DNA of 64,000 bases, taken from assembly GCA_965249555.1 (NCBI GenBank), contig OZ252243.1, forward strand, positions 960,001 through 1,024,000. Reading direction: 5' to 3'. Source of the DNA: Nitrosopumilus sp. (lineage in GTDB: Archaea > Thermoproteota > Nitrososphaeria > Nitrososphaerales > Nitrosopumilaceae). Numbering within the stretch: the first letter of the stretch is position 1; each line of letters starts with the position of its first letter. A program made the position numbers and the translations under genes. Shown here in pieces: positions 8,337-56,576 of the stretch. The notes beneath the pieces were generated by a model. The model saw only the letters and a list, made by a program, of their open reading frames with translations, was not told the DNA's origin and ran no database searches.

Positions 8337-9491
8337 GTGGAATTAACTAGAGGAGAAGAATCTGCATTAAAAGGTGAACAAGGCGAAATTATGCAGATGG
8401 CATATAGAATTTTAGTTGCAACAGGTGAAGCAACAGATGCAGAAAGACTCGTTCCAATAGAATGGGCCCATCTATCAGGAGTTAATTACAATACAATTGG
8501 CGATGCAGGAGAAGAATTATTATCAAGTATTAGTAAAAATGCAAGAGTTAAAGTAAAAACAACTTTGAATCCAATGGGATTTGATATAGATAATGTTTCA
8601 AATTATAATTTAGATGAAAATTTTATTTCAAAACAACTTTCAATTAAAAACTCTTATGAAACAATGGGTGTTATCCCATCATTTTCATGTATTCCATATG
8701 AAATATTTGATATACCAAAAGAAGAAACTCAAGTTGCATTTGCAGAAAGTAATGCTGCAATTCATGCAAATTCTTATGATCATCTAAAAACAAACAAAGA
8801 AAGTTCTTTTAGTGCACTTGCAAGTGCAATTACTGGCAAGAGTCCATATTCTTCTTTACGAAAAGAAGATTCACCTAATCTTACAATTAGAATGAAAGTG
8901 AATGATCCAAATGAGTTAACCTATGGAATGCTAGGATTTTTTGCAGGAAAGGTTGGAGATACTTCTGTAAACATATCAGGTCTAGGAGAGATGGATAGAC
9001 GTCAATGCAAGGCCATGTGTGGAGGTATGGGAACTTCTGGAACTTGTGCAAAATTTCGTTTTGGAGAAGGAGATGCAGGTTGTGAAAAAGTAGACTTTGA
9101 TGAGAAAGAGATGCAAAATGTTCATGATGAATTAAACACTGCAGAAAAAGGAGACTTGATTACTCTTGGTAGTCCTCAATTAGGATTAGAAGAAATTTCA
9201 GATCTTACTGCCAGGCTTAAAGGACGATCTTTTAAGAAGAGATGTATGATATTTTGTCCCAGAACCGTAAAAGAACAGGCAAGAAAAATAGGATATGCAA
9301 ATGAATTAGAACGTGCAGGATGTGAAGTTCTTTCAGATTGTTGTACATGTCTAACACCATTAATCAGTAAAGATGAGGTTGATGCAGTTACTACAAACAG
9401 TATCAAAGGTGCATTTTATCTAAAAAATTCTAATGGTGTTGATGTAAATCTAAAACCATTATCACAGATAATTGAAGATGAAACAAGTTGA
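8337..9491 (+). CDS. Aconitase X large subunit (phosphomevalonate dehydratase, archaeal mevalonate pathway)
   Basis: AHLSGVNY, SCIPY, AFAESNA, TTNSIKGAFY; followed by the swivel subunit. Confidence 0.85.
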   Translation: MELTRGEESALKGEQGEIMQMAYRILVATGEATDAERLVPIEWAHLSGVNYNTIGDAGEELLSSISKNARVKVKTTLNPMGFDIDNVSNYNLDENFISKQLSIKNSYETMGVIPSFSCIPYEIFDIPKEETQVAFAESNAAIHANSYDHLKTNKESSFSALASAITGKSPYSSLRKEDSPNLTIRMKVNDPNELTYGMLGFFAGKVGDTSVNISGLGEMDRRQCKAMCGGMGTSGTCAKFRFGEGDAGCEKVDFDEKEMQNVHDELNTAEKGDLITLGSPQLGLEEISDLTARLKGRSFKKRCMIFCPRTVKEQARKIGYANELERAGCEVLSDCCTCLTPLISKDEVDAVTTNSIKGAFYLKNSNGVDVNLKPLSQIIEDETS

Positions 9492-47478: not shown

Positions 47479-48939
47479 ATGATATTTTTTGATATGAAAA
47501 AGGAGTTAACCTTTGCATTAAACTATGCATTAAACAAAGGATTCCAGATTCATCCAGATGCTTTTAAAATTTTAGAAAATTTTGATGTTAAAAAATTAGA
47601 GAAGATCATAAAAGAGATAGTTAAAGAAAAAACCAAACAAAAATTATTTCAGATCAACCAAGATGATTTAGAGATATATCTTGGAATTAAGGAGGACCTA
47701 ACTCTACAAAGTGAAATTAAAATATTATCTGATCCTACGAAAAAAATAACAACAGGTGAGGGAGTTAAAGGGTATAATGCATTATTTTCAAGTCGTTTTA
47801 ACAAGCTTAAAAGAATAATTTTAGATAGACCAGAATCAAAAAAACTCAAATCTATTGCATCTTTGAAAATCACAAAACAAGAAGGAGATACGTACGTCTG
47901 TGGTCTTATCACTTCAATAATTAGTGAGAGAAATATCTCAAAGTTGACTCTAGAGGACCCATCAGGCTTGTTTGAGGGTATTGTTTTTGATAATGAATTA
48001 CAAAAGACTGCAGGCACTCTTCTAACTGACCAATTTGTAATGGTAAGGATAGGTTTAGGAAAGAATTCTGGATTTATTATAAAGGATATAATTCTGCCAG
48101 ATATTCCAGATCAGGCTATCAACAAATCAGAATCTGAAGTGTATGCAGTCTTTCTTTCAGATCTTCATATTGGAAGTAAGTACTTCATGGAGGAGGAATT
48201 TATGAAATTTGTTTTGTGGTTATCAAGCCCAGATCCAGTTGCAAGAAAAATTCGTTTTGTCTTAATTGGAGGGGATGTAGTTGATGGAGTTGGAATATAT
48301 CCAAATCAGGATAAAGAGTTGGTTTGCCAGACCATTGAAGAGCAATTAAAAAAGACAGTTGGTTTGATTGAAAAGATTCCAAAAAATATCAAGGTCATTA
48401 TAATGCCTGGAAACCATGATCCTGGAAGAAGAGCCCTCCCACAGCCAGCCATACCAAAAAAATACAATTCAAGTTTATGGGAAATGGAAAATGTAGTAAT
48501 GGTTGGAAACCCAGCCGTAGTTTCATTGAACGGGGTAAAGATAATGATGTTTCACGGACAGAGTATTGATGATATTGTAAAGACCACACCTGGTCTAAGT
48601 TATGACAAACCAACAAATGTAATGAAACATCTTCTCAAGGCTAGACATCTAAGTCCAATTTATGGTAGTCAAACACCCATAGCCCCAGAGATGGAGGATC
48701 TTTTGGTAATTGAGGATATTCCAGATATCTTTCATGTAGGTCATGTTCATAGAGCAGAATTGGATATGTATAAGGGAATTTTATTGGTAAATTCGGGTTC
48801 ATGGCAAAAACAAACACCTTTCCAGGCTAGTGTTGGAATGACTCCGAACCCAGGAATTGCACTTATGGTAAATCTAAAAACTTTCCAAGTTCATTATGAA
48901 AATTATAATTTAGAGTTAGATAATATCCTTCAAAGTTAG
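47479..48939 (+). CDS. polB: DNA polymerase D small (proofreading) subunit DP1
   Basis: SDLHIGS, GDVVDGVGIYPNQ, PGNHD, HGQS, GHVH. Confidence 0.95.
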   Translation: MIFFDMKKELTFALNYALNKGFQIHPDAFKILENFDVKKLEKIIKEIVKEKTKQKLFQINQDDLEIYLGIKEDLTLQSEIKILSDPTKKITTGEGVKGYNALFSSRFNKLKRIILDRPESKKLKSIASLKITKQEGDTYVCGLITSIISERNISKLTLEDPSGLFEGIVFDNELQKTAGTLLTDQFVMVRIGLGKNSGFIIKDIILPDIPDQAINKSESEVYAVFLSDLHIGSKYFMEEEFMKFVLWLSSPDPVARKIRFVLIGGDVVDGVGIYPNQDKELVCQTIEEQLKKTVGLIEKIPKNIKVIIMPGNHDPGRRALPQPAIPKKYNSSLWEMENVVMVGNPAVVSLNGVKIMMFHGQSIDDIVKTTPGLSYDKPTNVMKHLLKARHLSPIYGSQTPIAPEMEDLLVIEDIPDIFHVGHVHRAELDMYKGILLVNSGSWQKQTPFQASVGMTPNPGIALMVNLKTFQVHYENYNLELDNILQS

Positions 48940-50124
48940 ATCGTTTTTGAAGGTCTTTTTTATCATTTCAGATGAGATCGTAAGTTTGTATTTTTTTGTT
49001 CTACCATGAATTCCTTGGTGGACCAGTCTTCCAATAATGATTCCAGATAATTCAATTTCACTCAACATTTGTGTAGTTCTTCTTTGGGTTAGCTCATCCC
49101 GGCCAACTGTCTTGCAGAGATTTTTGTATGATGAGTAAATCTCTCCAGTTGAAGAGCCATTTGCCTTCATAATTGCAAGAATGACTAGTTTTTCATGAAG
49201 GGGATATGATTTTAGCGAGGTTTCCTCTTTGTTTTCTTCAATTTTTAGAGAAGCTTCTCTGACATGTTCAACTGTAACTTTGTTTGATTGTTGTCTTTCA
49301 GCAATCTCTCCTGCGACACGGATCAAATCAATTGCCCTACGAGCATCACCATGTTCTCCTCCTGCAAGTGCCGCACATAGATTTAGGGCAGGATCCTCAA
49401 CAGAATTCTCTACAAAGGCTTCGTTAATTCTCTCTTCAAGAATTGTTTTAATTTGTTCAACATTATAGTTGGTAAAGACAATCTCTTCCTCGCCAAGACT
49501 GCTAATTACTCTAGGATCTAGTCTTTCTTTGAATGTTAGATCATTTGAAATTCCCACCAAAGTTAGGGAACCTTGTTTTAATCGCTCATTTGCTCTTGTT
49601 AGTTGATATAAGATGTCTTTACCTGTTTTTGATACTAATTGGGCTAGATAGTCAATCTCATCAATTACAAAAATTGCGTTAAGTTTTCCTTCATCAATCT
49701 TATTGAGGAGTCTTTTGAAAACCTCACTTATTGCTAGGCCAGTTGTGGGTAATTCCTCCTTTCCTAGGTCTAATTGCCTGCCTAAACTAACTAATAATCC
49801 ATAGAGGGTTGTCTCTTCTTTAGAGTTGGAATAAACTAGTTTAATTGGGAAATTTGATTTTTCTACTCTTTCTTGAATTTTAGAAATTACTTTTTTTACA
49901 ACTAATGTTTTACCTATTCCAGGTTTTCCATAAACCAAAAGATTTGATGGTCTTGATTGTTTTAGTATTGGTAATAGTGATTGTGTAACTTGTTCTTGTT
50001 CAGAAGTTCTGTGTTGTATGGTATTTGGTATGTAGGTTGTTTGAAGAATATCTCTATTTTTTATTATAGATTCACCTGATTCTGCTGCATCAAGTAATCT
50101 ATCTATTGGATCAGACATACTCAC
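48916..50124 (-). CDS. cdc6: Orc1/Cdc6 replication initiator
   Basis: GKPGIGKT, DEID, GDARRAIDL, C-terminal wHTH with GRT wing. Confidence 0.96.
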   Translation of the reverse strand: MSMSDPIDRLLDAAESGESIIKNRDILQTTYIPNTIQHRTSEQEQVTQSLLPILKQSRPSNLLVYGKPGIGKTLVVKKVISKIQERVEKSNFPIKLVYSNSKEETTLYGLLVSLGRQLDLGKEELPTTGLAISEVFKRLLNKIDEGKLNAIFVIDEIDYLAQLVSKTGKDILYQLTRANERLKQGSLTLVGISNDLTFKERLDPRVISSLGEEEIVFTNYNVEQIKTILEERINEAFVENSVEDPALNLCAALAGGEHGDARRAIDLIRVAGEIAERQQSNKVTVEHVREASLKIEENKEETSLKSYPLHEKLVILAIMKANGSSTGEIYSSYKNLCKTVGRDELTQRRTTQMLSEIELSGIIIGRLVHQGIHGRTKKYKLTISSEMIKKTFKNDLTLKDII

Positions 50125-50199
50125 ACACCTTTGTTTCCTATCAATAATATCATAACCATATCTAAATTAAGAGAGTAAAGAAGAGAACAATAACTCTAG

Positions 50200-50460
50200 C
50201 TTAGTTTGTAATTAATTATTTTTAGTTAGATTTTGATTTTCTTAAAAAAAAATTATAAAAAATACAGAGTGGAAAGATTGGTGTGTGGGTTGAATCTAAA
50301 TTTTACCTTAAAGTTAACATTTTGTTAATATCCTGCTATGGAATTATATAAAAAACCTATTTTGACCCTTTAATTTCCATTCCAGGCGTTAAGATTGATG
50401 TTAACACTGTGAATATGCTTGAAACAACCCCTTTATTTCCACTCCAAGCATAAATATTTC
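50200..50460. other. Probable replication origin (oriC) with three ORB elements
   Basis: GAGTGGAAAG (+, 50267-50276); minus-strand GGAATGGAAATTAAAGGG (~50365-50386) and GGAGTGGAAATAAAGGGG (~50427-50448); AT-rich tracts; directly upstream of cdc6. Confidence 0.85.
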
Positions 50461-50585
50461 TTAATTAGAGGGGATTTTACATGAGATGTTGTTAATAATA
50501 AAAATATGACTAGGCGTGGCTTATGCAGTCAATGTTAACAAACAATCTAGTTAACAAACATTCTCGGATCAATTGAACTGTTAAC
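50313..50585. repeat. Array of five GTTAAC palindromes
   Basis: At 50313, 50400, 50534, 50550 and 50580; GTTAACAAACA occurs twice. Confidence 0.7.
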
Positions 50586-50608
50586 ATCTGATCCTTTAGA
50601 TCTCAAAG

Positions 50609-50995
50609 ATGGCTAAAAAACGTATTCGAATAGATATGGAGGACACAGATGGTGCACGATTTGACATCAAAATAGAAGGTAATGTCACCAGGGAAAAGGT
50701 TCTCAAAATATTTGAAATGATGGACTTGATGAATATTGAGGAAGAACACGAAACAACAAACATGGACTCAGTAGGCTCAAAAATTTGGCATATTGTGGAT
50801 AAATTCTTCCCAATGGGTAAATTTACCTCCACGACTATTCTTGAAAAATACGAAGATGAATTCAACGAACCAGTAAAACTTAGTGTAATATCGACCTATT
50901 TGTCACGTTTTTCATCAAAAGGTAGGATTGATAGGGTTAGAACAGGTCGTGAATGGACCTATCAAACCATTAAGATAAGCCAAAAACAACAATAA
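50609..50995 (+). CDS. Small protein with C-terminal winged HTH
   Basis: FTSTTILEKYE...KLSVISTYLSRF...IDRVRTGREWTY. Confidence 0.8.
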   Translation: MAKKRIRIDMEDTDGARFDIKIEGNVTREKVLKIFEMMDLMNIEEEHETTNMDSVGSKIWHIVDKFFPMGKFTSTTILEKYEDEFNEPVKLSVISTYLSRFSSKGRIDRVRTGREWTYQTIKISQKQQ

Positions 50996-50999
50996 CCGA

Positions 51000-51161
51000 T
51001 TAAGAAATGGTTATTTTCCTAACAATTAACTGATCTTTTCCAAGAATCAACTTTACATATTCACCTTTTTGAATATCCATGTATTTTCTAAATTGTTTTG
51101 GAATAGAAATTGTCCCGGCTGAAGTGATTTTTACCAAAACTTCATTCTCTTGAACAGACAT
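51000..51161 (-). CDS. AbrB/MazE/SpoVT-family DNA-binding protein (53 aa), not in the track
   Basis: MSVQENEVLVKITSAGTISIPKQFRKYMDIQKGEYVKLILGKDQLIVRKITIS*. Confidence 0.85.
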   Translation of the reverse strand: MSVQENEVLVKITSAGTISIPKQFRKYMDIQKGEYVKLILGKDQLIVRKITIS

Positions 51162-51276
51162 ATTATTATTATAATTTTATAATATATATAATTTATAATT
51201 AATAATAAATTATTATGTTTCCATGAAAATTTGAATGAAAGGACAAAAATCTATTATGGTAAACTAAAAAAATTTC

Positions 51277-51879
51277 TTATGCAATAATTGGGTTAGTTTG
51301 AACGTCTTCAACCTTTGCTTTTCCCTTCTCAGTAATTGAATATGTGTATGGTTTAGTTTCTATATTTCTTTGAACATAACCACCATCAAATAATTTCTTC
51401 ATTAATCTTGAAGTATGTTCCCTACTTCTCTTTAATGTGATGTGTATGTCACGTGATGTCATAGTTTTGTTTGTGATTAATTGCAACACATAATCTGTTG
51501 GGTTTGTGTGATCTATACTAGAAATATTGGGTGTGGAAATTAGTTTTTCAGACCTTATTTTAGGTTGAATTACTTTTTCTACATTATTTTCTTCTGCTTT
51601 GTTATTTAACAACTTTTCTAAGAGTTGTTTTAATTCTAACTTAGAATCCTCTGTTTTAGGCTCAATTCCTTGAATTTCTAATGCATCTAGGCGTATTTTC
51701 ATATCAATTAACTGCCTTTCGTAGTACTCTAAACGCTCAGATTGTGGAACATCAGACATTTCACTTTTTGATTTAATGAATGGAAGTACTTTGTAAAACA
51801 CATACAATCCACCTAAACCAACTACAAATGCTAAAATCACACTCAAAATCACTTCAGGATCAGGAATTTCTACTAACAT
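51277..51879 (-). CDS. Membrane-anchored protein: N-terminal TM, coiled coil, C-terminal MarR-like wHTH
   Basis: VILSVILAFVVGLGGLYVFY; MTSRDIHITLKRSREHTSRLMKKLFDGGYVQR...YSITEKG; likely start MLVEIP at 51879. Confidence 0.82.
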   Translation of the reverse strand: MLVEIPDPEVILSVILAFVVGLGGLYVFYKVLPFIKSKSEMSDVPQSERLEYYERQLIDMKIRLDALEIQGIEPKTEDSKLELKQLLEKLLNNKAEENNVEKVIQPKIRSEKLISTPNISSIDHTNPTDYVLQLITNKTMTSRDIHITLKRSREHTSRLMKKLFDGGYVQRNIETKPYTYSITEKGKAKVEDVQTNPIIA

Positions 51880-52125
51880 CACAAATTTACGCCTATGTTG
51901 TGATTTATCGTGATTGAACAACATTATTTCACACTTTAGATTAACATACTGACACACATAATCACAAACACATCAACTACTTTTTGATATTTATCATCAC
52001 AAATATCACATATTACATGCCTTTCGAATAGTCATATCTATCACCCTAGTGATTTGTTCTTCTCTTTCTGGGAAGATATCACCATCATTCATCACACGAA
52101 TGTTCTCTGAAAGTTTGGATATCAC
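51437..52125. repeat. Dense array of ATCAC/GTGAT motifs (17 copies counted)
   Basis: At 51437, 51453, 51473, 51508, 51836, 51848, 51878, 51900, 51910, 51961, 51996, 52005, 52040, 52049, 52078, 52091 and 52121. Confidence 0.7.
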
Positions 52126-52368
52126 ATCAATATCATCAGGTAAGAGTATGCCTAGACCGCGAAAAAGTATAATTGAATAGAATAATGCGATTAATTTCTC
52201 TCTAGATTGCCCAACTTGCCTATAATATGCTCCTCTTGTTATAGGAAATTTAGATTCTAGAAGATCCTTCTGATTTAAAATAATTTTAATTTGTCGCTCT
52301 GTAAATAGAGATTTTTTGATGATTTGGCGAATAATATTGTTAAAATTAGATTCTTTAGAGTCTGCCAT
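52006..52368 (-). CDS. Hypothetical protein with an HTH-like segment
   Basis: SLFTERQIKII...ITRGAYYRQVGQSREK, resembling a sigma-r4/Tfx-like HTH. Confidence 0.7.
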   Translation of the reverse strand: MADSKESNFNNIIRQIIKKSLFTERQIKIILNQKDLLESKFPITRGAYYRQVGQSREKLIALFYSIILFRGLGILLPDDIDVISKLSENIRVMNDGDIFPEREEQITRVIDMTIRKACNM

Positions 52369-52433
52369 AGCTATACAAATCTGTATACTGACATTCCAAT
52401 TAAACTTTAAAGAGTCATCTACAAACCTCCACT

Positions 52434-53186
52434 ATGACTGGAAACAAAGTTGAATCGTTCCTAAAATCAGAATTAAAAAAGAAAAACGCATTGTTATTTG
52501 TTTTAATTGATTCTGAAGTATCACAATTACAGGCATCAAGCAAGCTTGCCAAAGATGTTGAAAAGATTGGTGCATCTGCAATCTTGGTTGGAGGCTCCTC
52601 AGCCACTGATCAGATTGAGATGGCTCAAGTGGTTAAAGGCATCAAAAAAGGTATTAAAATTCCAATAATCTTGTTTCCTGGAAATGTCACAGGCGTTGTG
52701 CCTGATGCTGATGCAATCCTATTTAGCTCCCTAATGAACTCAGAAAATCCATACTTTATCACACAAGCACAAGCATTGGGAGCCCCAAGTGTTCTCAAAT
52801 TTGGTTTAGAACCACTTCCAACCGCTTATTTGGTGATTGGAGATGGAACCTCAGCTTGGTTTGTTGGTTCTGCACGAGGAATTCCTTTTGAAAAACCAAA
52901 AATTGCTGCTGCATATGCCCTTGCCGCTCAATTTCTTGGAATGAGATTTGTATATTTAGAAGCAGGTTCTGGTGCAAAAACTAGTGTTACTCCAGAGATG
53001 GTCAAAACAGTAAGGCGTGCTTTTAATGGATTCTTGATAGTAGGAGGAGGAATCAAAGATGTAAAAACTGCCCAAAACTTGGTCAAAGCAGGAGCCGATG
53101 CTTTGGTAATTGGTACATTCCTTGAAAAAGGAGGAAGCATCAAAAAACTCCAAGAAATAGCAAAAGTAATTCAAAGAAGCAAGTAG
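52434..53186 (+). CDS. Geranylgeranylglyceryl phosphate synthase
   Basis: LVGGSS, ILFPGN, YLEAGSGA, VGGGI. Confidence 0.95.
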   Translation: MTGNKVESFLKSELKKKNALLFVLIDSEVSQLQASSKLAKDVEKIGASAILVGGSSATDQIEMAQVVKGIKKGIKIPIILFPGNVTGVVPDADAILFSSLMNSENPYFITQAQALGAPSVLKFGLEPLPTAYLVIGDGTSAWFVGSARGIPFEKPKIAAAYALAAQFLGMRFVYLEAGSGAKTSVTPEMVKTVRRAFNGFLIVGGGIKDVKTAQNLVKAGADALVIGTFLEKGGSIKKLQEIAKVIQRSK

Positions 53187-53198
53187 TAGAATTGTATC

Positions 53199-56100
53199 AT
53201 GTCAGATAACGATGCAATTTCTCGTATTAGTGATATTAAGATGCCAGATTATTATCATGATTACTACTCAAATCTTTCAAGTGAAACAGTTTCCATCTTT
53301 GAGAAAGCAGCAGTTGCAAAATCAAGTTTGGTAGACTCTTCAGGTATAATTGAACCTAAAATCGCATTTGATTTGGCAGATCGTGTTTCCAAAATGCACG
53401 AAATTGATATTGCTGAACCTCTTAGAGAACTACTAAAAACAAACGGGAAGGAACTCTCTGCACTTATTTTATCAAAAGAAATTGCTCTTGGTGAATACTC
53501 TCTTTCTGATGCTACCTTAGAAGACAAACTAGATCTTGCAGTTCGTGTAGGGTTAGCCATTGTTACAGAAGGAGTAACCATCGCGCCTTTACAGGGAATT
53601 AGTGAAGTAAAAATCAAGAAAAACAAAGATGGCACTGAGTATCTTTCAGTTTCTATTGCAGGACCTATGCGTTCAGCAGGAGGAACAGAATCTGCTGTAA
53701 CAATGTTAATTGCAGACCATGTTAGAAAAGCAGTTGGTTTAACAAAATACCAAGCAAATTCATTTGATGATGAAACTGGTAGATTTGTAGAGGAATTACG
53801 AATCTATGAAAGAGAGGCCAGTAGTTTTCAATTTCATATTTTAGATGAAGATATCGAACATGTCATTTCTCACCTTCCAGTCGAATTAGATGGAGTAGAT
53901 ACGGATCCATTTGAGGTTGTAAATCACAAATCAATGATTCGCATCAAAACTGATAGGGTTAGAGGTGGCGCTTTACGTGTCTTAAATGATGGATTGATTG
54001 GAAGATCCAAAAAACTTCTCAAAAGGATTGAACTATACAATCTAGATGGTTGGGAGTGGCTTAATGATCTTAAAGGTGTAGTTCAAACAGGTGAAAATCA
54101 GGAAGACGCAGCTGCTAAAAGAATGCGTGAAGTAATTACAGGAAGATCAGTCTTATCTATGCCTAAAAAGTTAGGTGGATTCCGATTAAGATATGGAAGA
54201 GCATGTAATACAGGCTTTGCAGCAGTTGGAATTCATCCCGTAGTAGGTGAAATTTTAGATCATACCATAGTTGTAGGAACACAAATCAAAATTGACATTC
54301 CAGGAAAAGGAGCAACTATTGCTTTTGTTGATTCTATTGATACTCCAATAGTTCGCCTAAAAAATGGCAATGTTGTAAAGATTAGAGACATTAAACATGG
54401 ATTAGAAATTAAAAATGAAATTGAAAAAATCCTACACTTGGGAGATATACTAATTTCATTTGGAGACTTTCTTGAAAATAATGCTCAACTTATTCCTTCA
54501 GGGTATGTTGAAGAATTTTGGATAGAGGAACTAAAACAAAAAATCCAAAAATATGAACCTGATGATCAGTATCTAAAACAATTTCTGACTAGAGTACCCA
54601 CAATAGATGAGGCACTGAAAATTTCCCTTGACTTTCAAATTCCACTTTATCCACATTATCTATATTTCTGGGATAAAATCTCATCAAAAGAACTTGGTCA
54701 ACTTTTAGAACCAAAACAAGTTACTGAAACATCAATTGAATACTTTGTGGAAATAAAAAAAATCCTTGAAAAATTGGGCACTCCTCATAAAGTTGAAAAT
54801 GAAACTATAGTCCTAGAAAATCTAGAGGCAAAAATTTTCTTTAATTTATTGTTTAGAGAAAAACCAACAATTAGTGATTTGTCAGTTCCAAAAATTTTAA
54901 CAAAATCATCAGGAATTCAAATTAAAAATAAATTTTCAACATCTATTGGGGTTCGAATTGGAAGACCTGAAAAAGCAGCTGCTAGACAAATGAAACCTCC
55001 TACACACATATTATTTCCAATTAGTGACAAAGGAGGACCTACCAGAGATCTTCTAAAGGCATCAAGAAATGAACACTTCTTTACTAACATATTCAATAGA
55101 CATTGTGACCAATGTAATGAACCCTCTATAGGCATCAAGTGCTCTAGATGTGGCACTAAAACAACAATTTACTACAAATGTTCTAACTGTAGAGACACTC
55201 TTACTGAACCATATTGTGAAAAATGTAAACGCAAAGTACAAACTCACTCACACAAAGAATTTCCACTAAAAACAAAATTACTATCAGCTCAGGAAAAAAT
55301 GGGATTACGTGTCAAAGAACCATTCAAAGGCGTCAAAGAGCTAATTAATCAAGATAGAATTGCTGAACCTCTAGAAAAAGGAATTACACGTCAAAACTTT
55401 GGGCTTACAGTCTTCAAAGATGGAACTGTTAGGTTTGATGCAACAAATTCTCCCTTAACCCAATTCAAACCATCATGGATTGGAACATCGATAGAGAAAC
55501 TAAAGGGGCTTGGATATTTTCACGACATAGATGGGAAACCACTTACAAACTTAGAACAGATTGTTGAACTTCGTATGCAAGATGTGATAATTCCGTATGA
55601 TAGTGGAAATTATTTGGTTTCTACTTGTAAATACATTGATACTCTTTTAGTGAAATTCTATGGAAAATCTTCATTTTACAATGTAAAGAATACTGAAGAG
55701 CTTATCGGCCATCTAGTAATTGGCTTAGCTCCACATACTTCTGTTGGAATAGTAGGACGAATCATTGGATATACTGAAACACATGTTTGTTTTGGAACTC
55801 CAAACTGGCACTCTGCAAAAAGAAGAGATGCTGATGGTGATGCTGATTCTATTATGCTTCTTATGGATAGCTTACTTAATTTCTCAAGACAATTTCTTTC
55901 TGATAGAATAGGTGGGCTAATGGATGCTCCATTACTTGTGCAACCTCTAGTTTTACCACATGAATCTCAACCACAAGCACACAATCTTGAAGTCACAAAG
56001 TATCTTCCTTTAGAATTCTTCGAGTCCACATTTCAACAGAACAAAGCATCAGATATAACATCTGTAGAAATTATCAAGTCACGTCTTGAAACTGAAAGGC

Positions 56101-56576
56101 AATTTTATGATTATTTCTTTACACATTCAACTTCATCACTAACCACTTCAAAATCTCGTAGTGCCTACTCTACACTTGGCTCAATGCTTGACAAATTTGA
56201 TATGCAAATTAGAAATGCTGAATTAATTGATGTGGTAAATCCTTCAGAAATTGTTTCAAATGTCATTTCAACACATCTGGTTCCAGATATTATGGGAAAT
56301 CTTAGAGCATACGCTAGACAAAACTTTAGGTGCACAGGTTGTGGAAAATCATTCCGTCGGATGCCTCTAATTCAAACATGTGTATGTGGTCATAAACTAA
56401 TTCCTACAATTACCAGAGGCTCTGTTGAAAAATATCTAAAACTTGCAAAAAGACTTGTTGAGAAATATGATGTTGGTGAATATCAAAGAGGAAGAATTCA
56501 TGCTCTATCAGACGAAATTGAATTAGTATTTGGTAAGAGTAAAGGAGACCAATCACTTCTTACTGATTACGCCTAG
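53199..56576 (+). CDS. polC: DNA polymerase D large subunit DP2 (no intein)
   Basis: AGPMRSAGGT, GGFRLRYGR, FKDGTVRFD, AKRRDADGDAD, Zn fingers. Confidence 0.97.
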   Translation: MSDNDAISRISDIKMPDYYHDYYSNLSSETVSIFEKAAVAKSSLVDSSGIIEPKIAFDLADRVSKMHEIDIAEPLRELLKTNGKELSALILSKEIALGEYSLSDATLEDKLDLAVRVGLAIVTEGVTIAPLQGISEVKIKKNKDGTEYLSVSIAGPMRSAGGTESAVTMLIADHVRKAVGLTKYQANSFDDETGRFVEELRIYEREASSFQFHILDEDIEHVISHLPVELDGVDTDPFEVVNHKSMIRIKTDRVRGGALRVLNDGLIGRSKKLLKRIELYNLDGWEWLNDLKGVVQTGENQEDAAAKRMREVITGRSVLSMPKKLGGFRLRYGRACNTGFAAVGIHPVVGEILDHTIVVGTQIKIDIPGKGATIAFVDSIDTPIVRLKNGNVVKIRDIKHGLEIKNEIEKILHLGDILISFGDFLENNAQLIPSGYVEEFWIEELKQKIQKYEPDDQYLKQFLTRVPTIDEALKISLDFQIPLYPHYLYFWDKISSKELGQLLEPKQVTETSIEYFVEIKKILEKLGTPHKVENETIVLENLEAKIFFNLLFREKPTISDLSVPKILTKSSGIQIKNKFSTSIGVRIGRPEKAAARQMKPPTHILFPISDKGGPTRDLLKASRNEHFFTNIFNRHCDQCNEPSIGIKCSRCGTKTTIYYKCSNCRDTLTEPYCEKCKRKVQTHSHKEFPLKTKLLSAQEKMGLRVKEPFKGVKELINQDRIAEPLEKGITRQNFGLTVFKDGTVRFDATNSPLTQFKPSWIGTSIEKLKGLGYFHDIDGKPLTNLEQIVELRMQDVIIPYDSGNYLVSTCKYIDTLLVKFYGKSSFYNVKNTEELIGHLVIGLAPHTSVGIVGRIIGYTETHVCFGTPNWHSAKRRDADGDADSIMLLMDSLLNFSRQFLSDRIGGLMDAPLLVQPLVLPHESQPQAHNLEVTKYLPLEFFESTFQQNKASDITSVEIIKSRLETERQFYDYFFTHSTSSLTTSKSRSAYSTLGSMLDKFDMQIRNAELIDVVNPSEIVSNVISTHLVPDIMGNLRAYARQNFRCTGCGKSFRRMPLIQTCVCGHKLIPTITRGSVEKYLKLAKRLVEKYDVGEYQRGRIHALSDEIELVFGKSKGDQSLLTDYA

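Follow-up and report, generated by a model that had tools for sequence, protein, structure and literature searches.

We analysed a 64,000-nucleotide window of DNA from a Nitrosopumilus species (contig OZ252243.1; positions 960001-1024000 of a single-contig 2.23-Mb genome) and concentrated on four small genes, here called g1 to g4, that lie between the replication initiator gene orc1/cdc6 and the genes for GGGP synthase and the large subunit (DP2) of DNA polymerase D (PolD). Two of them, g1 and g3, encode proteins with a winged helix, the g3 protein also carrying a hydrophobic N-terminal helix, and beside each gene there is a cluster of short conserved sites that is the densest of its kind in the genome. 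We believe, with a probability of about one half, that g1 and g3 form a site-specific module linked to the origin of replication (oriC), in which the g1 protein would occupy sites within oriC and the g3 protein an array of its own. Positions given below are those of the window unless the genome is named.

An earlier reading of the same DNA from its letters alone, which we call the sequence-only reading, had described the four genes as a DNA-binding cassette embedded in repeat arrays and had proposed that it tethers or segregates the origin. As far as sequence comparison goes, that interpretation is partly supported, and its two strong points are the linkage of the genes to oriC and the conservation of the motifs. 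This locus supplies concrete candidates for controlling or positioning the origin in an ammonia-oxidising archaeon. One candidate is an apparently undescribed winged-helix family in the origin gap, whose motif recurs in origins of the class and, in a variant form, in other classes. The second candidate, anchored in the membrane, is a winged-helix protein that has a conserved site array of its own beside the origin.

The origin and the two winged-helix genes

The 484-bp gap between the divergent orc1/cdc6 and g1 genes (50125-50608) is the single chromosomal origin of this Nitrosopumilus-type archaeon, because it adjoins orc1/cdc6, contains three origin recognition boxes (ORBs) and an A/T tract, and coincides with the extreme of the genome's cumulative GC skew (genome position 1,010,000). 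The initiator gene (48916-50124, minus strand) matches TIGR02928 at 361 bits against a cut-off of 181, and has matches to Cdc6_lid and Cdc6_C as well. The boxes were found by pattern match and in an alignment of the gap from the family, which has 77 rows, contains conserved blocks and holds all three boxes at a conservation of at least 95%. ORB1 (50265-50289, minus strand) is in inverted orientation, and its core, GAGTGGAAA, forms an inverted repeat with ORB3 (AACCCCTTTATTTCCACTCCAAGC; 50426-50449, plus strand). Between them lies ORB2 (GACCCTTTAATTTCCATTCCAGGC; 50364-50387, plus strand), and boxes of its type, which resemble TTCCAYTGGA, are present in distant loci too. The A/T-rich stretch that adjoins ORB1 (50196-50265), seen in the sequence and conserved across the family alignment, is a candidate unwinding element. 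The sequence-only reading had placed ORB boxes immediately beside the cassette, and this was borne out, as was the presence of four small genes between orc1/cdc6 and GGGP synthase/DP2 (50609-50995, 51000-51161, 51277-51879 and 52006-52368).

The g1 gene (50609-50995, plus strand) encodes a 128-residue protein. In a structural model built with 24 orthologues (pLDDT 76 overall and about 90 over residues 55-120), a beta-hairpin and helix at residues 4-46 are followed by a canonical winged helix at residues 50-125. This C-terminal part resembles the DNA-binding domain of Fur (Z 11.2, rmsd 2.0 over 70 residues) and many other winged-helix structures, and a Foldseek search also returned generic winged-helix matches only (E ~0.01). 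No Pfam family scored above its cut-off in a scan of the window protein; the nearest, Penicillinase_R (PF03965), reached 17.9 bits against 22.6, and the same family matches 10 of the 24 orthologues at E <=0.01 (best E 2.3e-6). The assignment of g1 as a winged helix-turn-helix (wHTH) protein by the sequence-only reading thus agrees with the model, though the Pfam score is below the cut-off. Source annotations name g1 only "hypothetical protein", and an Atlas look-up returned only clusters named "hypothetical protein" and HTH_27/MarR. Judging from the model, we consider g1 to be a winged-helix protein of an undescribed family. The literature that we searched, which did not cover the primary origin-mapping work on Nitrosopumilus maritimus, contained no description of these genes or motifs. 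Two candidate relatives of g1 were dropped: a pNOB8 centromere-binding protein ranked 46th among the generic Foldseek matches, to which we give no weight, and an identity with WhiP/Cdt1 found no support in any Pfam or PDB match.

The g3 gene (51277-51879, minus strand) encodes 200 residues, in which a transmembrane helix at the N-terminus is joined by a helical linker to a C-terminal winged helix with the signature SREHTSRLMKKL; a longer frame that starts with GTG extends to 51957. HTH_27 matches residues 152-212 of the 226-aa frame at 26.4 bits, above the gathering cut-off of 22.2, and the hydrophobic N-terminal stretch reaches a 19-residue Kyte-Doolittle maximum of 2.59 at residue 10. The N-terminus consists of an acidic tip of about nine residues, the hydrophobic helix and then lysines. 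By the positive-inside rule, these flanking charges predict that the N-terminus is outside and the C-terminus inside, with the winged helix in the cytoplasm. The helical middle looks like a coiled coil in its sequence, and with only about nine residues before the membrane helix, g3 has no sensor domain outside the membrane. Orthologues of g3 across the class and in eight loci of other classes have the membrane helix (hydropathy 2.0-2.8), the long helical middle and the signature SREHTARLMKKLY, although three orthologues from one family outside the class have no membrane helix. That g3 is a membrane-anchored wHTH protein, as the sequence-only reading had it, is supported by the winged helix and the hydrophobic helix, both of which are conserved in orthologues. 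When g1 and the cytoplasmic part of g3 were modelled as a complex, both runs, which had no controls, scored 0.00, and this carries no weight either way.

The position of these genes beside the origin is kept over large phylogenetic distances. By Orc1/Cdc6, the nearest kin of this genome are Nitrosopumilus and Nitrosarchaeum assemblies, and the family set consists of 80 loci fetched with this protein, all at least 86% identical and close kin. All four genes are present in 62 of the 63 family loci with at least 2.4 kb upstream of cdc6, the remaining one (L074) having no match to g2, and 66 family loci have the same gene order. In the class, g1 has a match in 184/201 sampled genomes and in 159/161 of those of good quality, a tally that counts this genome itself and one unpublished genome (G132). 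It lies within 3 kb of cdc6 in 24/25 other class genomes, and among 20 loci from other genera and families of the class cdc6 is beside g1 in 17. In two genomes, G116 and G184, g1 is at the end of a complete contig and cdc6 at its start, about 3 kb apart in G116, and in the L123 locus there is no cdc6 near g1. Five further families of the class all have g1 adjacent to cdc6, one of them (G006) across the contig ends; the 24 genomes thus comprise 17 direct cases, three that run across the ends of circular contigs and four from the other further families. Across the phylum, the g1 profile matches 167/251 genomes (130/214 when its own family is excluded), with about 10 families lacking a match among those searched, and g1 is beside cdc6 in 12/20 loci from different families of other classes. 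A g3-type gene occurs within 10 kb of g1 in 19/20 and 4/5 class loci and in 11/20 loci of other classes. The comparison of synteny with relatives that the sequence-only reading had called for therefore turned out in its favour, in the family, in the class and in other classes.

In one complete genome from a distant family (G006, loci L137/L138), we noted that g1 is in tandem upstream of cdc6 across the contig ends, not divergent from it, and that there are TGTGAA sites upstream of g1. In four loci from other classes (L145, L154, L157 and L163), ORB-like boxes (...CCCTTCACTTCCACTCGAA, ...TTTCCAGTGGAA) lie upstream of g1 in the absence of any cdc6 match within 10 kb, and may mark origins or be orphans with no initiator gene beside them.

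Two clusters of conserved sites

The origin gap contains eight sites of the TGTTAA type between 50313 and 50586: GTTAAC at 50313, 50400, 50534, 50550 and 50580, GTTAAT at 50324 and 50491, and GTTAAG at 50388. The last 75 bp before the g1 start codon hold three of them, and one pair is just 3' of ORB2. A recount agreed with the five GTTAAC palindromes reported by the sequence-only reading: the region has five, all at 50313-50585, and the window 18. With five copies in 300 bp, where the next densest cluster has three, this clustering of GTTAAC is unmatched in the genome. In total number the window is not unusual (18 copies versus 12.9 +/- 3.95 in dinucleotide-preserving shuffles); what stands out is how the copies cluster, not how many there are. 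Elsewhere in the genome, we found 15 further pairs of GTTAAC within 80 bp, 10 of them outside long open reading frames (ORFs), many at gene tails and with no coherent set of genes. An inverted repeat, GGATCA...TGATCC (50565-50594), flanks the last GTTAAC just before the g1 start and is conserved in the family alignment.

In the family alignment, conservation reaches 95% or more at the ORBs and at most of the TGTTAA-type sites, the spacers are variable, and the 77 family loci have 2-7 GTTAAC per origin gap, as opposed to 0-0.28 per kb in the flanks. At least one GTTAAC is present in 15 of 17 distant origin gaps of the class, mostly 2-7 of them, beside the ORBs and just before g1, and distant families, too, have an ORB with a GTTAAG/GTTAAC pair after it. 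In L115, from a GC-rich lineage of the class, GTGAAC/GTTCAC replaces GTTAAC. In other classes and some deep lineages of the class, the motif before g1 is TGTGAA, often as tandem pairs. Counting both forms as TGT[GT]AA in the 150 bp upstream of g1 in 42 distant loci, we found 112 copies, compared with 11.9 +/- 3.3 (maximum 23) in 1000 composition-preserving shuffles, and this was the highest count among 180 permuted motifs (median 10).

The second cluster consists of six TGTGAT/ATCACA sites between 51836 and 52010 (at 51836, 51878, 51899, 51961, 51996 and 52005), which span the start of g3, the spacer between g4 and g3, and the stop of g4. It too is the densest array of its motif in the genome (six in 200 bp at 51836, the next having four). 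It lies about 1.5 kb from the ORBs, and both motif clusters are within 1.9 kb of them. In 48 family loci, the six sites are conserved together with the stretch 51880-51945. Upstream of g3 orthologues across the phylum, TGTGAT occurs 64 times in 26 loci, versus 3.3 +/- 1.8 (maximum 10) in shuffles, and 16 of the 26 loci have at least two. Conservation of the motifs, the other comparison that the sequence-only reading had proposed, thus holds for both clusters, in the family, in distant loci of the class and in other classes.

Some details of the sequence-only reading had to be revised. It counted 17 ATCAC/GTGAT motifs in the 2-kb region; the number is 18 (ATCAC 10 and GTGAT 8), more than anywhere else in the window, where the median is 5 per 2134 bp, and several copies are within coding sequence, including that of g3 and g4, where they represent Val-Ile or Asp-Val-Ile codons. 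Its description of the 2 kb as embedded in arrays is right in that motif clusters exist, but these are two short separate clusters, each on the promoter side of one gene. The duplicated ATACTGACA does occur twice (51946 and 52385), and nowhere else in the window, but both copies are poorly conserved in the 48 family loci, so we dropped it as an element.

For the conserved C-terminal stretch of g4 (..DV I S.., ..RVMND.., ..RVIDM..), the codons contain GTGAT (52040-52125 in the window; 9100-9230 in locus L113), so several sites of the g3 array are inside the g4 coding sequence, where the same bases may serve both as codons and as binding sites. An unrelated coding tandem repeat accounts for the one other strong ATCAC cluster of the genome, at genome position 2,058,075. 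It lies outside the window and consists of a perfect 21-bp unit repeated 14 times (genome positions 2,058,075-2,058,370) in a 340-aa ORF (2057970-2058992, minus strand).

In the model of g1, the recognition helix comprises residues 91-103 (KLSVISTYLSRF), of which residue 93 is the third, and STYL.R in this helix is nearly invariant across the phylum. We compared residue 93 with the motif in the 400 bp upstream of g1 in 45 loci, 19 of which have no clear motif preference. The residue is other than Thr in all 15 loci that clearly favour TGTTAA, and Thr in 10 of the 11 loci that clearly favour TGTGAA. By contrast, neither the helix of g3 nor its TGTGAT motif changes where the g1 motif does, which fits two proteins with two specificities.

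Possible roles and competing explanations

We propose that the locus may hold an ancient origin-linked module of site-specific DNA-binding proteins at the flank of the origin. The g1 protein, encoded divergently from orc1/cdc6, would most likely bind the TGTTAA(C) sites around the ORBs and over its own promoter, repressing itself and also sitting on the origin as an accessory factor alongside Orc1/Cdc6. The g3 protein, held in the membrane, would most likely bind the TGTGAT array before its own gene and, when bound, would keep origin-proximal DNA at the membrane; g4 travels with g3.

A number of observations weigh against this proposal. Both arrays are at the promoter side of their gene, so autoregulation alone would explain where they are. 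The whole block from DP1 and cdc6 through to GGGPS and DP2 is syntenic, and conserved position alone is therefore no proof of origin function. The motifs are post hoc, having been chosen after inspection of the sequences in which they were later counted. Upstream of g1, TGT[GT]AA averages 3.23 copies where cdc6 is adjacent (31 loci) and 1.09 otherwise (11 loci), and this lower count away from cdc6 links the motif no less closely to the origin context than to g1. Counts of TGTGAT per 100-kb bin have no gradient towards oriC, in what can only be a weak test with a motif as short as a 6-mer. As for the covariation, the L150 locus favours TGTGAA and lacks the Thr, and a Cdc6 tree has five residue changes and four motif changes, which are few independent events. 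Among three independent pairs, two were concordant, none was opposite and one had no difference (sign test p 0.5), and with only three such pairs the test cannot reach significance.

Much of this would be expected if g1 and g3 were ordinary small autoregulated transcription factors, found beside oriC only through a stable neighbourhood and with no role at the origin, which we think is unlikely while granting it a real chance. In fold and family they belong with common regulators (MarR/HTH_27, AbrB, BlaI/Fur-like winged helix), with putative operators at their own promoters as in MarR/HTH_27, BlaI/MecI and AbrB repressors; the arrays are directly upstream of the genes concerned; genes with no relation to them, GGGPS, DP1 and DP2, are equally syntenic; and g1 is not beside cdc6 in 8 of the 20 loci of other classes. 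On the other hand, the TGTTAA-type sites also adjoin ORB2 and ORB3, 130-300 bp from the g1 start, in an arrangement that recurs in distant families, and their count tracks the cdc6-adjacent context. The divergent orc1-g1 pair is kept across classes, where gene order otherwise rarely survives, and both g1 and g3 are locked to orc1/oriC across classes in a way that ordinary repressors are not. There are also differences in the proteins: g1 scores below the Penicillinase_R cut-off and has a conserved extra N-terminal domain that sets it apart from BlaI/MecI, and g3 is anchored in the membrane, unlike MarR/HTH_27 repressors, and has no extracellular sensor part, unlike typical membrane-bound one-component regulators.

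The system favoured by the sequence-only reading, with the proteins on centromere-like arrays and g3 holding or partitioning origins without ParA, seems to us rather improbable. Its appeal is in the combination of membrane anchor, helical linker and DNA-binding domain in g3, which is conserved in the class and beyond, and in the g3 array, which is the densest of its motif in the genome and lies 1.5 kb from the ORBs. RacA of Bacillus subtilis likewise has DNA-binding, helical or coiled-coil and membrane-targeting parts, and its ram sites are near oriC. RicO of Staphylococcus aureus follows the same logic (bioRxiv 10.64898/2026.03.06.710092): its DNA-binding domain is combined with a coiled coil and a membrane-binding helix, and the protein holds origins at the membrane from sites that are likewise near oriC. 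Both of these proteins are bacterial and the comparison with g3 is one of architecture alone. RicO also differs in having a C-terminal amphipathic helix and nine ricS sites over ~700 kb, while the helix of g3 is transmembrane and N-terminal and its six sites form one local cluster. This single short cluster, with no wider spread of sites apparent over the origin-proximal region, speaks against tethering, as do the lack of any sign of spreading or coating, the lack of a motor, and the three g3 orthologues without a membrane helix.

The sequence-only reading had seen no ParA-type ATPase, and we agree: there is no ParA/SegA-type ATPase in the four-gene region, and with PF13614 (one match) and PF01656 (five matches, two models in all) none of the ParA/SegA/MinD type was recognised in the genome. 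The matches were BioD and CobQ, the two that were scanned further, and a 454-aa ORF of the CbiA family, a 382-aa ORF and one below the cut-off. Pfam and NCBIfam scans of the four proteins (E up to 1) gave no ParB family, in a search that included no test aimed at SegB. The locus has in common with ParABS and SegAB that there are repeated sites near the origin and that candidate site-specific binders are encoded beside them (review of the archaeal cell cycle, PMC7617429). It differs in the apparent absence of a Walker-type partition ATPase from locus and genome, and in its candidate binders, which are winged-helix, AbrB or helical proteins, where partition binders are ParB (HTH) or SegB (ribbon-helix-helix). 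As segregation candidates, the same review gives only SegAB and ParA/ParB-like genes, in other lineages (PMC7617429). The absence of a recognised ATPase is in keeping with a system that holds origins without ParA.

A bolder idea, which we would not expect to be correct, is that g1 and g3 constitute an ancient origin-positioning system of archaea that lack ParA, in ammonia oxidisers and several other Thermoproteota classes. Here g1 would mark oriC at TGTTAA/TGTGAA sites, and g3 on the TGTGAT array would fasten new origins to the membrane, coupling initiation to segregation. If this is true, archaea would gain their first described chromosome-anchoring mechanism, one that corresponds in function to RacA and RicO.

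It is also conceivable, at very long odds, that GTTAAC is a methylation or restriction-type site that times initiation and has nothing to do with g1. In Escherichia coli, clustered GATC sites and SeqA time initiation at oriC, and GTTAAC is likewise a 6-bp palindrome clustered at an origin. The genome has 327 copies, fewer than the mononucleotide expectation of 764. However, there is no depletion in the window against dinucleotide-preserving shuffles (18 observed and 12.9 expected) and other A/T-rich palindromes are equally rare or rarer, so we rejected depletion as a sign of restriction. Moreover, the non-palindromic variants GTTAAT and GTTAAG are conserved at fixed positions, and outside the class the equivalent motif is TGTGAA, which is not a palindrome.

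For the module that we prefer, with g1 at the origin, there is a close parallel in Sulfolobus, where origins need a second motif, ucm, bound by the accessory protein UBP, as reported by Dhanaraju et al. 2025 (PMC12141716). As described there, ucm is a short conserved non-ORB motif within an archaeal origin, bound by a small accessory protein and not by Orc1/Cdc6 (PMC12141716); on our side, origin gaps throughout the class have conserved TGTTAA-type sites. The proteins differ in several respects. In that paper (PMC12141716), UBP is a 111-aa protein that contacts DNA through beta-hairpins and forms a strand-swapped saddle dimer, whereas the DNA-binding part of the g1 model is a winged helix; UBP is a general nucleoid protein with >300 sites that is not encoded at the origin, whereas g1 is encoded in the origin gap, where its putative motif is densest; and for UBP binding and a contact with MCM have been demonstrated, whereas g1 is known from its sequence and model. 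UBP was not among the listed matches in the fold searches with g1, and absence from that list does not exclude a UBP fold. Should either g1 or g3 act at the origin, the requirement for an accessory protein, as reported for Sulfolobus, would extend to a second, unrelated family in globally abundant organisms.

The genes g2 and g4 and the neighbourhood

The g2 gene (51000-51161, minus strand) encodes a 53-aa protein of the AbrB/SpoVT type, with scores above cut-off for both PF04014 (35.1 bits versus 24.7) and TIGR01439 (36.9 versus 28.3), in keeping with its earlier assignment as AbrB-type. It was found only within the family by tblastn, with a short query of low reach, and from this distribution it appears to be a recent, lineage-specific addition at the level of the family. 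In the closest relative (locus L001, 6966-7073; Orc1 96% identical), the reading frame of g2 shifts after residue 25, leaving 35 aa, which may be an assembly error or real decay of a family-specific gene. Directly upstream of the g2 start, about 1 kb from the ORBs, there is a 57-nt tract of A and T only (51160-51216).

The g4 gene (52006-52368, minus strand) encodes a 120-aa, all-helical protein. Matches to g4 come from the taxonomic order and, weakly, from four loci of other classes, and in each case it stands immediately upstream of g3. The model has five helices (pLDDT 83) and a possible HTH similar to LuxR or sigma region 4 at about residues 16-75, where VIA-align gave weak matches to 7vim (Z 5.9), 8hno (Z 5.1) and sigma region 4 (Z 4-4.7). 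These represent HTH domains of the LuxR/GerE and sigma region 4 types and an archaeal transcription factor, at Z values that a common arrangement of helices can produce. A Foldseek search of the model against the PDB gave nothing below E 3.4, a profile search against PDB sequences had no match at E <=10, and the scan found no Pfam family. Of the earlier description of g4 as HTH-like, the weak structural resemblance remains and the other searches do not add to it.

Beyond the four genes, GGGP synthase (52434-53186) is followed by the gene for DP2 (53199-56576), both on the plus strand. On the other side of the origin, the gene for the PolD small subunit (DP1; 47479-48939, plus strand) is convergent with orc1/cdc6, and their 3' ends overlap by 24 bases (48916-48939).

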